A DNA stretch of 64,000 bases from a virus (Duplodnaviria; Heunggongvirae; Uroviricota; Caudoviricetes). The number at the start of each line of letters is the position of its first letter. The first letter of the stretch is position 1. Below, one piece after another: positions 1 to 64,000 of the stretch. The stretch is taken from positions 338,312-402,311 of IMG/VR virus record IMGVR_UViG_3300032167_000002, one strand, 5' to 3'. The translations under genes and the position numbers were made by a program. The notes under the pieces are model-generated. The model saw nothing but the letters and a program-made list of their open reading frames with translations, did no database searches and was not told where the DNA came from.

Positions 1-266
1 TACCAGTCGTGAACTGTACGCTCTTCATACTCATAAGGATCTAAATATCCTTGGAAGGGATTAGTACAAATGAGTTTAGTATATGTTTTTTCTCGAAGTC
101 CACAATCATCTTGATAATACCATCTCTGACAGTGAGGACACCAATAGCCTAGCGCTTGAAGCTCACTTTGCAATTTCATAATACCGTCAATGGTATTAGC
201 AATTACATCCATGCGCTCTTGAATGTCCTATGGACCATTTTTGAATACTTCATTTAGGTCGTACAT
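1..266 (-). CDS. Partial CDS running off the window start, encoding a zinc-ribbon protein (CPHC...C) with one in-frame TAG at 228-230.
   Basis: ATG at 266-264 overlaps the primase stop (TAATG). The translation MYDLNEVFKNGP[TAG]DIQERMDVIANTIDGIMKLQSELQALGYWCPHCQRWYY... stays in frame through the TAG. Confidence 0.4.
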
Positions 267-1369
267 TACAACACTATCCTCTCTTTGAATAGTTGCAGGA
301 ATACTTGCGGCCCGCAGTCGATCGGCGAGTCCTTGTATCCTGTAATTTTATTTTTATCGAATATAAAAGATATTGTTGCATAGTTCTTATATTTTGTTCT
401 TAATCGCAATAAATTCATTTTCAAATGCTTGAATTCTTCATCACCAATTTCTTGGAACTGGCGATCAAACGCAATTATAATCTCTTCTGCGCCAGCGTCT
501 AAGAGCATTTGAATCTGACAAGCCGATACGCTTGAACCGCAACACGCAACCGATATATCATTTTCTAATCCGAAATATGATTGATATAACAGACAAGATT
601 TTTCTCCTTCAAAAATAATCGCTTTTTTCATAACACCAATATTCTTACGACTGTTATTAAAGTTATATAAGTTCATTCCAAGAGGATGATTATATAATTG
701 TCCGTTTATACGCATCGGTCTATACTTACCAAAACGCTCGCCCTCTTCCGCACACAGGGTGCGTCCGCGCAGTCCCACAAATCGACCATCTTTATCGAAA
801 TGCGGAATTGTGATTTGGTCGCCTCCTGGATAAAAACCAATTTTTGCTTGGTCTAATGCGGCCTGAGTAATACCCTCTCGCAACCAGGGACCTATCTTCA
901 GCGAGTAGTTGAAGCGTTCCAATATACCATTTTCATATTCTTTTAGGATAACCGAGTTATCCTTCACCTCAATATCTTGAATTCGCTCGTAGTTAGCTAG
1001 GTATTTCCAATCGTCTAAATCTTCATCTTCTGGTCTATTTTCATGGTCGCCAGAAAATCCAAATCTTTGAGCGATCCACCTTACTGCGTCATTTAGGTCG
1101 AACTCTCTATGCCATTGAATCTGAGCGACCTTGGCTGTCAACTCGAAAATATCGAAATAACTATCGCAGCCAGTGTAGCAGCGGAACAAGCCGGTGTTTT
1201 CATAGTAATATAGCTTTCTACTACCTTCACCAGGAGGGTTGTGACAGATGGTAGCGGAGACGAAGCCGAATGTGTCTCGACTCGGATCTCCGCCCCATTC
1301 TTGAAGTAAATCGAATACATTTTCGTCGGTGAGAGCCTCACGGATTTTGGTTTTATCAAATACCAACAT
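266..1369 (-). CDS. dnaG: DnaG-type DNA primase with a zinc-finger domain and a TOPRIM domain.
   Basis: A CHNPPGEGSRKLYYYENTGLFRCYTGC zinc-binding motif is followed by TOPRIM motifs (IIFEGEKSCLL, EIIIAFDRQ). Confidence 0.8.
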   Translation of the reverse strand: MLVFDKTKIREALTDENVFDLLQEWGGDPSRDTFGFVSATICHNPPGEGSRKLYYYENTGLFRCYTGCDSYFDIFELTAKVAQIQWHREFDLNDAVRWIAQRFGFSGDHENRPEDEDLDDWKYLANYERIQDIEVKDNSVILKEYENGILERFNYSLKIGPWLREGITQAALDQAKIGFYPGGDQITIPHFDKDGRFVGLRGRTLCAEEGERFGKYRPMRINGQLYNHPLGMNLYNFNNSRKNIGVMKKAIIFEGEKSCLLYQSYFGLENDISVACCGSSVSACQIQMLLDAGAEEIIIAFDRQFQEIGDEEFKHLKMNLLRLRTKYKNYATISFIFDKNKITGYKDSPIDCGPQVFLQLFKERIVL

Positions 1370-1686
1370 TAGTTGATATCAACAAGAACCTTGACGCAGT
1401 ATCCTTTCAGACCCATCTGAGTATTTACATAATCGCACAGAATCTCATGTGCGGGCTTGGGTAACTTGCCACTCTTACCCTTGGCAGCCTTGAGGATTTC
1501 ATCAGCCATCAGCTTACCCATCTTGTACTCGACGGTGCCGGCGCAAACATCGGGAGCGGGCACAGTGTCACGCTTCTTGCCGGTAAAACCATTGTTAGGC
1601 TTGTTATTGGGGCGGTTGTTGTTGCGATTGAAGTTCTTCTTACCGTTGTTGTTATTTCTCTTATCGTTTTTTACAAAATCAGCCAT
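1369..1686 (-). CDS. Small basic protein with an Asn-rich low-complexity tract. The likely true start is the internal ATG at 1686 (MADFVK...).
   Basis: A GGAGAT ribosome-binding site sits 8 nt upstream of ATG 1686. The longer ORF-track start at 1818 would overlap dnaB exon 2. Confidence 0.35.
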   Translation of the reverse strand: MADFVKNDKRNNNNGKKNFNRNNNRPNNKPNNGFTGKKRDTVPAPDVCAGTVEYKMGKLMADEILKAAKGKSGKLPKPAHEILCDYVNTQMGLKGYCVKVLVDIN

Positions 1687-1762
1687 TTCATTTATCTCCT
1701 TCTTATTTACAATTCCAAAATCGGAATCATGTAACAAATTAGCTTTTGCTCTCAGCCCTCGA

Positions 1763-61421: not shown

Positions 61422-61608
61422 ATATAAAATATCTCCTTTCCTTCTTACATTTCTAATTATATATAAAAAATCATATATGAGTTTTTTTTTTTCTCTTGGC
61501 CAATTTGCTTTAAAAAAATTCTTTGATCCTATTAATTTTTTGTAGGCCAGAATCGAATAATATTTATTTATAAATTTTTATATTAAATATAGAAAGGAAG
61601 GTGTTTTT

Positions 61609-62352
61609 ATGAACCTAATGGTTATTTCAAAAAAACATTCATATTTAATTAATAATTTAGATTTATCAACAATTGACGTTGGTAGCATCATTTTCGATTT
61701 AAATGAAAAGAAAATGTATATTATGTTTACTCCAGGTAATTTGACTGAAATTACTGCTGAAACAAAAATTGTTGAAACATTAGAAGAATTAGTAGACGCA
61801 ATTGCTTTAGGTGGAAATATTACTATTACTCAAAATATTGATGCTGAAACTGGCTTTATAGTTACAACTAACAGTACAATTACCAACAATAGTATAATTT
61901 CTATTCCCGAAGACGTAGAAGGTAATGGAGTATTTATGGTAACAGCAGGTGTTTTAACTTTAAATGGAAATGGTACTTATAACGGTGTTGGTAAGAATGA
62001 TTGGAATATGGCTTTATGGGCAAAAGAAAATGGTAAAATCGTAATTAATGATGGCTATTTTACTAACGAGGGTGCAACCGCGAATGTTGATTCCGAGCAC
62101 TTTGATTTAATTTATGCTTCTGGCAATGCTCAAATTGAAATTAATGGCGGCGAATTTAAGTGTCAAACTCCTGCATGGACTTTGAACATTAAAGACAAAG
62201 ACCGTGCGACCGCAAGCATTATTGTTAAGGGTGGTAAGTTCCACGGCTTTGATCCATCTAATTGCGCAAGCGAAGGTCCAAATACTAATTTTGTAGCTCC
62301 TGGTTATAAAGTTGTTGAAGAAAATGGCGTATTTATTGTAATGCCTGAATAA
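61609..62352 (+). CDS. Gly/Asn-rich protein with predicted beta-helix character, possibly tail-associated. It has no TAG codons.
   Basis: GNITITQN...NSTITNNSII...LTLNGNGTYNG is present. A terminator hairpin follows at 62365-62400. Confidence 0.35.
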   Translation: MNLMVISKKHSYLINNLDLSTIDVGSIIFDLNEKKMYIMFTPGNLTEITAETKIVETLEELVDAIALGGNITITQNIDAETGFIVTTNSTITNNSIISIPEDVEGNGVFMVTAGVLTLNGNGTYNGVGKNDWNMALWAKENGKIVINDGYFTNEGATANVDSEHFDLIYASGNAQIEINGGEFKCQTPAWTLNIKDKDRATASIIVKGGKFHGFDPSNCASEGPNTNFVAPGYKVVEENGVFIVMPE

Positions 62353-62535
62353 TGATAAAATGGGTTGATATGTATTACATATCAACCCATTTTTTTTATT
62401 TTGCTTCCAAAAATTTCTAAGTCCATTTTCGATTTGGGTTTTCGGCTCTTTCGCCCCATACCGGTCGGAGTAGGCATACCGATCTATAAAAGAGCATAAA
62501 AAAACGCCCCTTCGAAGAGGGGCGAAAAACTTGGA

Positions 62536-64000
62536 TTAGCCGATAACGGCGTAACGCTCAGCGTTCAGCTTCTCCATCATCAGATCATATCCAGTCTTGC
62601 CGGACATGATGGTATCGAAGATGGTGGGGGACATACCGCTCACATAGGACACAAGGCCGCAGCCGATGTCCTCGGGGATATTGTCCTGACGAGCCTGGAC
62701 GTTCCAGTAAATCAGATGAGGCATACGGTAGCCGTGGGCAGCCCACTTAGCACGAATGCGCTCCATCAGAGTGGTAACCTGTGCAGAAGGCTTAGTAGCA
62801 TAGCCGTAGCCATAGCTGCTAGCGGAGCCGCGGTCGAACTCCATATCGGAGATAACGATCAGGTTCTGGGGCAGGTCGTCCTGGGTGCAACGATTTTGGA
62901 TTGCGGTATTCAGCAGCATATCGAAGGTAGCCTCGATATTGGTATTCTCGCAGAGGTTAGTCTGCCAGATGCGCTTTACCTTATCGCAGAAGTCAACACC
63001 GTCAACAGTGATAAGCTGAGGACGAGAGCTGAAGGATACATAGTGGCCAGCGAAAGGACCCTTGGCACGCTCGGCGCAGTACATACCCAGGCTGATAGCC
63101 ACATTGATGGGGGCAGCCGCATCAGAACCACGCATAGAAGCAGAGGTATCGACAACAGCCATACCATTGAAGGTCTTACCCTTGAAGTAATCCTCCAGGT
63201 TCTCCCAGTACTTGTTAACCATCAGACGGTCAGTGTCGTCCATGTTCTTGGCAGAGCGGGAGCTGTAACCCCAACCGTAAGAGCAACCCATTACCTCGCA
63301 AGCCTTGGCAACGACCTCGTAAGGATACAGAGCCTTAGCATTGACCTTGGTAGTGGTGTCCTTAGCGAAGTCTGCATAGGACTGAACGATCTTATCGCTC
63401 TTCATACGCTCAATGTCGTGACGAGCGAAAGCATTCTTATACTTCAGACCAGCCTTGGAGGGAATCTTATCGAACTCGATCTCATCCCAACGACCCTCGG
63501 ACATCAGACGCTCCAGGACGTTGATGCGCTTACGCAGAGCAGACAGAACCTGGCGATACTGCTTAGGAGTCATACCCAGATGGGCACGAACCTTAGCAGC
63601 AGTCTTGCGGGTCTTAGCAGAGCTGGTGTTCTCGGAAGGCATCCACTTAGCCAGTAGGGAGGGGGTCTTGCACTGAACATCCAGTGCCAGCTGATGCTTT
63701 ACGATGTTGAGTGCATCGTTCTGCAGAGGAGTGCCGATGAAAACGAACAGGTCGTCCCAGCGACCATACTCGGGCACATGGATCAGATTGCGGCGCATAG
63801 CCTCAGTATTATTGGTAGCCAGCCACTTAGTAGCAACACGGAAGAACCGGCGCTCACCCTGGCCTCCGCGCACGTCGCGGATGTAGAACAGACACTTCAG
63901 CGCATAGGTAGGATCCTCGGCGAAGGCGTTCTTGAACAGCAGGATAACATCCTCGTCAGAACGAGTACGGTAGGCCGCACCCATGGCGAAGAGATCCAGC
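62536..64000 (-). CDS. von Willebrand factor A domain protein (DUF2828-like) with a MIDAS motif. The N-terminus lies outside the window.
   Basis: A DxSxS MIDAS motif (AVVDTSASMRG) is present, and the protein is longer than 480 aa. The family assignment is from memory. Confidence 0.45.
   Translation of the reverse strand, partial: LDLFAMGAAYRTRSDEDVILLFKNAFAEDPTYALKCLFYIRDVRGGQGERRFFRVATKWLATNNTEAMRRNLIHVPEYGRWDDLFVFIGTPLQNDALNIVKHQLALDVQCKTPSLLAKWMPSENTSSAKTRKTAAKVRAHLGMTPKQYRQVLSALRKRINVLERLMSEGRWDEIEFDKIPSKAGLKYKNAFARHDIERMKSDKIVQSYADFAKDTTTKVNAKALYPYEVVAKACEVMGCSYGWGYSSRSAKNMDDTDRLMVNKYWENLEDYFKGKTFNGMAVVDTSASMRGSDAAAPINVAISLGMYCAERAKGPFAGHYVSFSSRPQLITVDGVDFCDKVKRIWQTNLCENTNIEATFDMLLNTAIQNRCTQDDLPQNLIVISDMEFDRGSASSYGYGYATKPSAQVTTLMERIRAKWAAHGYRMPHLIYWNVQARQDNIPEDIGCGLVSYVSGMSPTIFDTIMSGKTGYDLMMEKLNAERYAVIG

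Follow-up and report, generated by a model that had tools for sequence, protein, structure and literature searches.

The stretch of DNA analyzed here covers positions 338,312 to 402,311 of the IMG/VR virus record IMGVR_UViG_3300032167_000002, a member of the Caudoviricetes, and its full 64,000 nucleotides are referred to below as the window. The subject of the analysis is the codon TAG, a stop in the standard code, which occurs in frame within a part of the genes of the window and is read there as sense, most probably as glutamine (Gln). The window has a G+C content of 41% and is tightly packed with genes, predominantly on the minus strand. According to PHROG and Pfam searches, the left part encodes a primase, a DnaB-like helicase, an AAA_24/Sak4-like ATPase, DHFR, ThyA, an NAD-dependent ligase, both topoisomerase II subunits and RNase H. 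The right part is a long auxiliary block with genes for NadV, NAD synthetase, PRPP synthetase, Sir2, NADAR, an isochorismatase-type protein, an RNA ligase, a Thg1-like protein, cREC, a sigma factor, an SPFH protein, a major-vault-protein-like (MVP-like) protein and a DUF2828/DUF7788 'RNA-binding' protein. Between both blocks, at 20-32 kb, lie three tail-fibre-like genes, a multidomain lysin gene and a PIN-PhoH gene, and a fourth fibre gene stands apart at 60.3-61.4 kb.

Open reading frames (ORFs) were delimited by TAA and TGA alone, so that each runs from one of these stops to the next. The curated set comprises 79 gene calls, which correspond to 78 genes after merging of a split helicase, and has a coding density of 0.89. 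Altogether, 59 in-frame TAGs were found in 17 of the 78 genes, or ~22% of them. These genes, the blocks poor in TAG and the gene at the window edge are given below, with the G+C content at third codon positions abbreviated as GC3.

20380..22455, plus strand: tail-fibre-like gene 1, 691 codons with 11 TAGs, GC3 of 0.16
22469..23062, plus strand: gene 3' of fibre 1, 197 codons with 5 TAGs
23823..25610, minus strand: tail-fibre-like gene 2, 595 codons with 5 TAGs
25781..27217, plus strand: tail-fibre-like gene 3, 478 codons with 6 TAGs
27283..27453, minus strand: small ORF, a weak gene call, 56 codons with 1 TAG
27630..30155, minus strand: multidomain lysin (Peptidase_M15, phage lysozyme, Amidase_2 and SH3_3), 841 codons with 4 TAGs
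30227..31489, minus strand: PIN-PhoH gene, 420 codons with 1 TAG (30542-30544)
31768..32196, minus strand: phrog_32438 gene with no assigned function, 142 codons with 2 TAGs
60324..61421, minus strand: tail-fibre-like gene 4, isolated in a TAG-free block and matching PHROG tail-fibre families, 365 codons with 2 TAGs
9217..10206, minus strand: GIY-YIG nuclease gene, 329 codons with 12 TAGs (36 per 1000)
8035..8934, minus strand: thymidylate synthase, 1 TAG (8698-8700)
3361..4395, minus strand: exon 1 of the DnaB-like helicase, TAG at codon 13 (4357-4359), present also in the relative L371
34317..35036, minus strand: phosphoesterase, TAG-GAA-TAG (34428-34436) in the linker before a Cys-rich tail
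34033..34302, minus strand: gene of 89 codons, the 4th and 6th of which are TAG; its ribosome-binding site and ATG lie right behind the upstream TGA
10647..10880, minus strand: small ORF, a weaker call, 1 TAG
16652..16888 and 54643..54921: similar small ORFs, weaker calls, with 2 TAGs and 1 TAG, respectively
10901..19706, minus strand: annotated block free of TAG (NAD-dependent ligase, topoisomerase II subunits, RNase H, homing endonuclease), with TAG only in the small ORF 16652..16888
35033..60204, minus strand: nearly TAG-free block (NAD salvage, RNA repair, sigma-factor and MVP-like genes), GC3 of 0.45-0.65, Gln encoded by CAG, one TAG in the small ORF 54643..54921
62536..63984, minus strand: phrog_850 / DUF2828-DUF7788 gene at the window edge

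In this phage lineage TAG is a sense codon and never a terminator, as had been claimed in the initial annotation of the window, which was made from the letters and their translated reading frames. The 79 gene calls end at TAA (55) or TGA (24) and none of them ends at TAG, and all 13 ORFs that seem to end at TAG under code 11 are pieces of read-through genes. The TAG-bearing frames run without a TAA or TGA over 200-840 codons, with log10 P values of -4 to -16 per gene under the given base composition. Pfam domains of five families extend across TAGs, namely Thymidylat_synt (residues 10-292), PhoH (221-415), Amidase_2 (431-577), SH3_3 (790-837) and GIY-YIG (240-321), the last of which crosses two of them. 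Within alignments to ~200 related loci, the stops encountered were TAG in 579 cases, TGA in seven and TAA in four. The standard code splits the TAG-bearing genes into 2-13 pieces each, a fragmentation that could also be read as a sign of pseudogenes or of sequencing or assembly errors. This explanation has a negligible probability and is already contradicted by codon-specific and cross-assembly conservation: the interruptions are only TAG and never TAA or TGA, dozens of independent assemblies have either TAG or a Gln codon at the same positions, and the domains are intact.

A comparison of gene calls under code 11 and with TAG as a sense codon had been proposed as a check. Using one crude gene caller, coverage increased from 0.74 to 0.80 and mean length from 199 to 224 amino acids; the rise is weak evidence alone, since opening TGA or TAA lengthens ORFs more than opening TAG does. 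The summed ORF length under alternative codes was dropped as evidence for the same reason. Whichever of the three stops is opened, ORFs become longer, in part through the long antisense ORFs of many genes, and a gain in length does not discriminate between them.

Several of the per-gene counts of the initial annotation were reproduced. For instance, at least 10 TAGs had been reported in the fibre at 20380..22455, where we counted 11, and the TAGs of the fibres at 23823..25610, 25781..27217 (reported as 6) and 60324..61421 amount to 5, 6 and 2, respectively. The single TAG of thyA is present at 8698-8700 as described. Other counts had to be corrected. The lysin, for which five TAGs had been claimed, contains four whether its start is placed at the ATG at 30155 or the TTG at 30176, and the fifth (30213-30215) lies upstream of both candidate starts. 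The GIY-YIG gene, credited with 13, has 12 within 9217..10206. PhoH does contain a single TAG, but at 30542-30544 and not at 30539-30541.

Judged by codon-aware sequence comparison, the amino acid encoded by TAG in this phage lineage is most probably Gln, as had been suggested earlier. The TAG-containing proteins of the window, with X at each TAG, were aligned to six-frame translations of the ~200 related loci, and the codon under every stop was read. Opposite the window TAGs, Q was found 246 times, followed by E (128), K (107) and N (56), which correspond to fractions of 0.30, 0.15, 0.13 and 0.07. The profile opposite the CAA and CAG codons of the window is similar (Q 0.39, E 0.12, K 0.11 and N 0.08). 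With substitution profiles taken from the same alignments, Gln is the maximum-likelihood residue for TAG at 265 log-likelihood units over the next one. In the reverse direction, when the TAGs of relatives were compared with window residues, the margin of Gln was 116 log units.

The TAGs of the GIY-YIG domain had been proposed to fall at usual Gln positions, and residue 257 is indeed Q in 56 relatives and TAG in 11, and residue 267 is Q in 54 and TAG in 8. Lysin residue 502, a TAG in the window, is Q in 14 of 15 relatives. The TAG of ThyA, likewise assigned to a Gln position, is opposite Q in all five relatives and opposite the Q of Bacillus subtilis ThyA in 'LWIWQLKSND'. A close relative, L371, has a nuclease orthologue with 93% identity in which TAG is replaced by CAG at four sites, by CAA at two and by AAA at one, and retained at seven; Gln codons are found at six of the seven changed sites. 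Among the fibres, the N-terminus of fibre 2 (MGKLqING) aligns with that of fibre 4 (MGTLQVNG) so that a TAG is opposite a Gln codon of the paralogue, and the TAG at codon 14 of fibre 1 is opposite CAA or CAG in homologues.

Only codon-aware comparisons were counted. The Q residues of database fibre homologues at window-TAG columns, which are mostly TAG in the underlying DNA, were rejected as evidence, since TAG had been translated as Q in the prediction of those proteins. Automated pipelines already handle this phage family as code 15, and searches against databases that translate TAG as Q yield circular evidence for Gln.

It is very improbable that TAG encodes some other residue, such as Glu, Lys or pyrrolysine, or Ser, Leu or Tyr delivered by the long-variable-arm tRNA(CUA) of some relatives. 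After Gln, Glu and Lys are the residues most often opposite TAG, in this order, but they are equally frequent opposite true Gln codons, and the strictly conserved TAG columns are Q. The tRNAs with anticodon CUA are labelled 'Pyl' by ARAGORN, purely from the anticodon, and some of them have a length of 89-95 nt with a long variable arm and are nearest to tRNA-Ser or tRNA-Leu. However, the genomes with these long-arm tRNAs still place TAG at conserved Gln columns; at residue 374 of PhoH, for instance, 59 of 60 are Q, and at residue 326 of the lysin all 32 are. The likelihood values and the changed sites in L371 given above also argue for Gln.

TAG is concentrated in the fibre and lysin genes and in one nuclease gene, and is scarce in replication genes. 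In agreement with the claimed density of TAG in late genes and its scarcity in early ones, the fibres, the lysin and the ORF after fibre 1 contain 33 TAGs in 3167 codons (10.4 per 1000). In contrast, the annotated replication, nucleotide/metabolic, NAD and RNA-repair genes contain 4 TAGs in 11,074 codons (~0.4 per 1000), or 5 with the helicase TAG. With 'early' and 'late' assigned from gene function alone, the difference between 33/3167 and 4/11,074 corresponds to an odds ratio of 29 (p = 6e-18). The further claim that the long replication genes are free of TAG applies to the ligase, both topoisomerase subunits and the primase but not to the DnaB-like helicase, in which the TAG at codon 13 is conserved. 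The closest relative in IMG/VR has four giant fibre-like genes beside the replication module, with 3-8 TAGs each and a GC3 of 0.19-0.22, and its genes for DNA polymerase III alpha, NrdD and a RecD-like helicase are without TAG.

The genes of the window fall into three tiers of codon usage. The lowest tier, at a GC3 of 0.14-0.28, includes the fibres and lysin (0.16-0.22) and the homing endonucleases; replication genes range from 0.33 to 0.43 and auxiliary genes from 0.45 to 0.65. In the top tier, which is made up of the NAD, RNA-repair, SPFH and MVP-like genes, Gln is nearly always CAG, and TTA, ATA and TCA are almost absent. For example, the SPFH gene has 33 CAG and no CAA codons for Gln. Long open antisense frames accompany many of the high-GC3 genes. 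The Gln codons of the fibre genes are distributed as TAG 29, CAA 27 and CAG 2, and those of TAG-free genes as CAA 132 and CAG 273. The A-ending codons enriched in the low tier match tRNAs that are conserved in the tRNA clusters of relatives (TTA 59% vs 3%, AAA 81% vs 18%, CAA 86% vs 12%).

With TAG being sense, the bias towards fibres and lysin could still be a by-product of codon-usage class and gene history and no timing device at all, which we consider possible although rather unlikely. Once a suppressor exists, AT-rich, fast-evolving and often exchanged genes would drift towards TAG. As would be expected from this, TAG density declines with GC3 (Spearman -0.46) and TAG genes are mostly of low or middle GC3, with the low class preferring A-ending codons that are served by phage tRNAs. 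The fibres vary between relatives and have no matches in topoisomerase-flank loci, a few replication genes tolerate TAG, and some members of the family have the same genes in the standard code, free of TAG. However, at a GC3 of 0.16-0.22, where CAG is nearly absent, TAG makes up half of the Gln codons, contrary to compositional drift; as a G-ending codon with this share in the genes richest in A+T at third positions, it would not have been brought about by composition alone. Three low-GC3 genes are free of TAG, namely the homing endonucleases at 2468..3148 and 18993..19706 and the ORF at 61714..62352, so low GC3 alone is not predictive of TAG use. Many TAG positions are retained as TAG among relatives, and the same bias recurs in unrelated recoded phage clades.

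The probable decoding machinery was found in relatives of the window. These have a tRNA cluster with tRNA(CUA) in the 10 kb directly upstream of the phrog_850 gene, and for the phrog_850 gene of the window the corresponding upstream DNA lies just past position 64000. The tRNA(CUA) was annotated as 43 genes in IMG/VR loci and in 25 further metagenome loci, all adjoining the phrog_850 gene and confirmed by the Rfam tRNA model. The cluster order is conserved as Ser(UGA)-CUA-Leu(UAA)-Gly-Lys...Cys-gene. In these relatives tRNA(CUA) co-occurs with in-frame TAG: among contigs with both regions retrieved, in-frame TAG is present in nine of nine with tRNA(CUA), and tRNA(CUA) is absent in all five contigs without in-frame TAG, despite 8-17 other tRNAs. 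The first base is other than G in 30 of 32 tRNA(CUA) and in 30 of 33 tRNA-Gln, as compared with G in 286 of 374 other tRNAs, and two tRNA(CUA) that were inspected have a U1·U72 mismatch and G73. From this distribution we infer that the present genome carries a tRNA(CUA) just outside the window.

Other features of the tRNA clusters were also recorded. The long-variable-arm form of tRNA(CUA), at 89-98 nt unusual for a Gln decoder, occurs in L137, L138, L140, L142, L164, L190, L195, L245 and L252. The cluster of L142 contains a ROOL RNA (341 bits) and a tmRNA (93 bits) at 4155..4779 and 5462..5763, and L127 has a partial match to the OLE RNA model at 4876..4965 that is barely above threshold. A predicted tRNA at 1010..1082 of the standard-code relative L133 has the anticodon UUA and would read TAA. 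Theta/HDV-like ribozymes and other RNA elements were considered and rejected, as no such family was detected at Rfam gathering thresholds in the window or in four tRNA-cluster loci.

The joint explanation that we prefer, and consider highly probable, is that of a code-15-like phage in which UAG is read as Gln, a phage tRNA(CUA) performs the decoding, and a late-gene bias would delay the fibres, lysin and nuclease. UAG would be decoded most probably by a phage-encoded suppressor tRNA with the anticodon CUA, in a host that presumably reads UAG as a stop. Upon entry of the DNA, the TAG-free genes would be translatable in the unmodified, standard-code host. For the TAG-rich genes, full-length products would have to await the accumulation of the suppressor and of the other phage tRNAs, and the production of fibre, lysin and nuclease would be delayed or locked until late infection. 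The timing role of the bias is a published hypothesis, with which the present data are consistent.

Several observations weigh against this explanation. No tRNA gene was found in the window, which ends 16 bases past the start of its last gene, so the suppressor has to be deduced from relatives with 75-78% identity; the nearest records, at 84-97%, are short and do not extend as far as the tRNA cluster. Eight TAG-using relatives have no tRNA(CUA) in the 10 kb retrieved. The identity of tRNA(CUA) to other phage tRNAs never exceeds 0.79, and the nearest types are mixed, with no tie to tRNA-Gln. No GGQ-domain match indicative of a release factor was obtained in the 5.8 Mb of DNA searched, which is a weak test. 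Capsid, portal and terminase genes are absent from the window, and the early and late classes are defined by function only. Single or paired TAGs occur in the non-late genes for the helicase, ThyA, PhoH and the high-GC3 phosphoesterase, and the gene with the densest TAGs is a conserved GIY-YIG nuclease with a putative membrane anchor, which is neither a fibre nor a lysis gene. The three TAG-free genes of low GC3 named above belong here as well.

Some of these points would also be expected if there were no dedicated reassignment, with TAG being a leaky, low-efficiency stop or being suppressed by the host, through either a host suppressor tRNA or a TAG-sense host. The window has neither a tRNA nor a release-factor gene: there is no Rfam family at gathering threshold and no release-factor candidate among its proteins of at least 300 amino acids, and the eight relatives without a retrieved tRNA(CUA) are in line with such a view. 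Even so, its probability is very low. The presence of tRNA(CUA) tracks in-frame TAG across relatives, and with 11-12 TAGs per gene leaky read-through would give almost no full-length protein. A TAG-sense host would not explain the near absence of TAG in ~11,000 early codons.

A more elaborate account with three linked parts appears doubtful. It would combine a tRNA-supplied programme of three codon tiers (high-GC3 auxiliary genes using CAG, mid-GC3 replication genes, and low-GC3 late genes relying on A-ending codons and phage tRNAs) with a replacement of CAG by TAG in the late genes. The main locked item would be the self-dangerous, membrane-anchored GIY-YIG nuclease and not lysis, with TAG perhaps serving as a conditional stop that gives short products early and extended ones late, as in the phosphoesterase with its zinc-ribbon-like tail and at helicase codon 13.

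The GIY-YIG nuclease of 9217..10206 is a syntenic core gene of the phage family, with 67 loci and more than 5000 homologues at E <= 1e-10. Its predicted architecture consists of an N-terminal hydrophobic, putative transmembrane segment, a helix of ~150 residues, a conserved linker and the C-terminal GIY-YIG domain. The AlphaFold model is confident for the helix only (residues 2-179), which includes the hydrophobic segment, and poor over the C-terminal half; the membrane anchor is putative. A similar layout, with an N-terminal transmembrane segment and a C-terminal GIY-YIG domain, is known from SNIPE, a membrane-bound defence nuclease (PMC13190303). In contrast to SNIPE, the central DUF4041 domain was undetected in the window nuclease: there was no Pfam match to DUF4041 even at E = 5, PADLOC matches were limited to the nuclease domain, and the only match in a PDB sequence search was to the I-TevI nuclease domain. 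A SNIPE-like assignment of the gene was therefore rejected.

Two further nuclease genes are of the homing type. The DnaB-like helicase gene (1769..4395, minus strand) is split into exon 1 (4395..3361) and exon 2 (2293..1769) by a precise insertion of 1067 nt, which carries a homing endonuclease gene with GIY-YIG and helix-turn-helix domains (2468..3148). In L371 the helicase gene is uninterrupted and encodes 512 amino acids, with the junction reading ...KYVF followed by HDYIHTS. The insertion looks like an intron with a homing endonuclease, judging from these gene structures, and had no match to an Rfam group I or II intron model. The second gene, at 18993..19706 (minus strand), is a free-standing homing endonuclease gene of the GIY-YIG/HNH type, overlapping the beginning of the GyrB-like gene. 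L371 lacks this gene, and there the lysin adjoins gyrB and the fibre cluster is missing.

The four fibre paralogues share the N-terminus MGxLxxNG and a conserved upstream element of ~90 nt (GGCCAG...A-run...TCATATATGATTTTTTATATATAATTAGAAATA...GAGAGAAAGGAG), located at 20250..20379, 25611..25780 and 61422..61551. The element was not used as a general late promoter, as it is confined to the fibre paralogues within the window. Close homologues of fibre 1 are full length and keep most TAGs as TAG. A 197-residue homologue of the gene 3' of fibre 1 is also located downstream of the fibre in the relatives L321 (7 TAGs) and L322 (4 TAGs).

In the phosphoesterase, the PHROG domain covers residues 2-191 and is followed by a Cys-rich tail (...YKRDPPDGGYYG) that is conserved in frame in relatives. 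The TAGs before it are read through, because the tail behind them is conserved in frame, and the TAG at 34434 was rejected as a genuine stop on these grounds. Without suppression, the gene would give a domain-complete protein minus the tail. The tail is absent in some relatives, and early-short and late-long isoforms are conceivable.

The auxiliary block contains a dense set of NAD-salvage and RNA-repair genes at 37839..56868 (minus strand). It includes NADAR, NAD synthetase, NadV, Sir2, PRPP synthetase, an isochorismatase-type protein, an HD protein, a YqeY/GatB-like protein (43092..43631), an RNA ligase (46407..47825), a Thg1-like protein (51195..52004), several metallophosphoesterases and a cREC receiver domain (56566..56868). 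A link to the handling of tRNAs is conceivable for the YqeY-like and Thg1-like proteins. Two large genes of high GC3 and without TAG, both on the minus strand, lie outside this set: 57724..60204 encodes an 826-residue protein with major-vault-protein shoulder and repeat domains (PF11978 and PF17795), and 32467..33987 encodes a 506-residue protein that combines an SPFH/Band 7 domain with a long helical region rich in Ala, Glu and Lys.

Hundreds of relatives were found in IMG/VR and metagenome assemblies, on contigs of ~160-200 kb, and the record of one of them is a human gut metagenome. The highest identities were 97%, for a 2.5-kb contig, and 84-88%, for contigs of IMG/VR. Neither a look-up of exact proteins nor a search of metagenome contigs with exact 60-mers gave a match, and the DNA of this genome that adjoins the window at its right edge was absent from the collections searched. 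Among GenBank phages, there was no nucleotide match to the window, and topoisomerase protein identity did not exceed 42%. The close relative L371 carries the Pfam families YorF and SPbeta_YorH, and the ThyA of the window is nearest to that of B. subtilis; because of these two similarities, the sequences hint at a Bacillota host. SPbeta, after which these replication-gene families are named, is a Bacillus prophage.

Stop-codon recoding of this kind was reportedly described by Ivanova et al. in 2014. The window is a further ordinary example of the described code-15 recoding (Ivanova 2014, Borges 2021/22, Peters 2022) and represents no new phenomenon. Code 15 is known from uncultured gut phages of the crAss-like, Lak, Jade, Sapphire, Agate, Garnet, Amethyst and Topaz clades, for which the timing model was also put forward (10.1101/2021.08.26.457843), and the reading of TAG as Gln is confirmed by proteomics, in published work on crAss-like phages only (PMC9523058). 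The likeness to gut phages noted in the initial annotation is borne out. As in the published phages, in-frame TAG is opposite Gln, replication genes are mostly in the standard code and structural and lysis genes are recoded, and a phage-encoded suppressor tRNA(CUA) is present, which in this family was seen in the relatives of the window. TAG is already a rare stop in the standard-code relatives of this family (4 of 103), as in the evolutionary path of Borges et al. The contig sizes of the relatives are compatible with the range of the Jade, Sapphire and Agate clades, and the proportion of genes with in-frame stops is 26% in Sapphire as compared with ~22% in the window (10.1101/2021.08.26.457843).

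Some features differ from these gut phages. The most recoded gene of the window is the conserved GIY-YIG nuclease with its putative membrane anchor and not a spanin, holin or amidase; the late genes form small islands (20-32 kb and 60-61 kb) amid TAG-free genes; and no release-factor/tRNA-synthetase 'code-change module' was seen here. The nuclease has a partial counterpart in Agate phages, in which a group I intron homing endonuclease is preferentially recoded, with TGA read as Trp (10.1101/2021.08.26.457843). In both cases a GIY-YIG-type nuclease is the gene most biased to the recoded stop, which suggests that a potentially harmful nuclease may be produced only late. However, the Agate enzyme is a mobile intron enzyme with TGA-to-Trp recoding, whereas the window nuclease is a syntenic core gene with a putative membrane anchor, and the true homing endonucleases of the window are free of TAG.

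Phages of code 4, in which TGA is read as Trp, resemble the window in that a stop is reassigned via a phage tRNA, but both the codon and the amino acid are different and the window has no in-frame TGA. A few relatives of the window family do show it: in L103, L104 and L123, which are more distant, the reading frame of the nuclease homologue contains TGA, and reading TGA as sense lengthens the ORFs of L123 considerably. Judging from these frames, the three may be code-4 members of the same family. Another recoded gut phage, the uncultured phAss-1 of the proposed 'Phassvirus', has ~136 kb, TAG in 41 ORFs and suppressor tRNA genes (PMC10607447); given the GenBank results above, it is not close to the window.

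The current understanding of recoding is unchanged by the findings in the window, which is a clean additional case for the hypothesis of late functions being gated by stop-codon recoding. As for annotation, gene calling in the standard code fragments the genes for fibres, lysin and nuclease in this abundant phage family. As in the code-15 gut phages, recoded and standard-code members are found within one clade. With the same gene order in both, and a split that is matched by the presence of tRNA(CUA), this family is a good natural system for studying how and why recoding arises.

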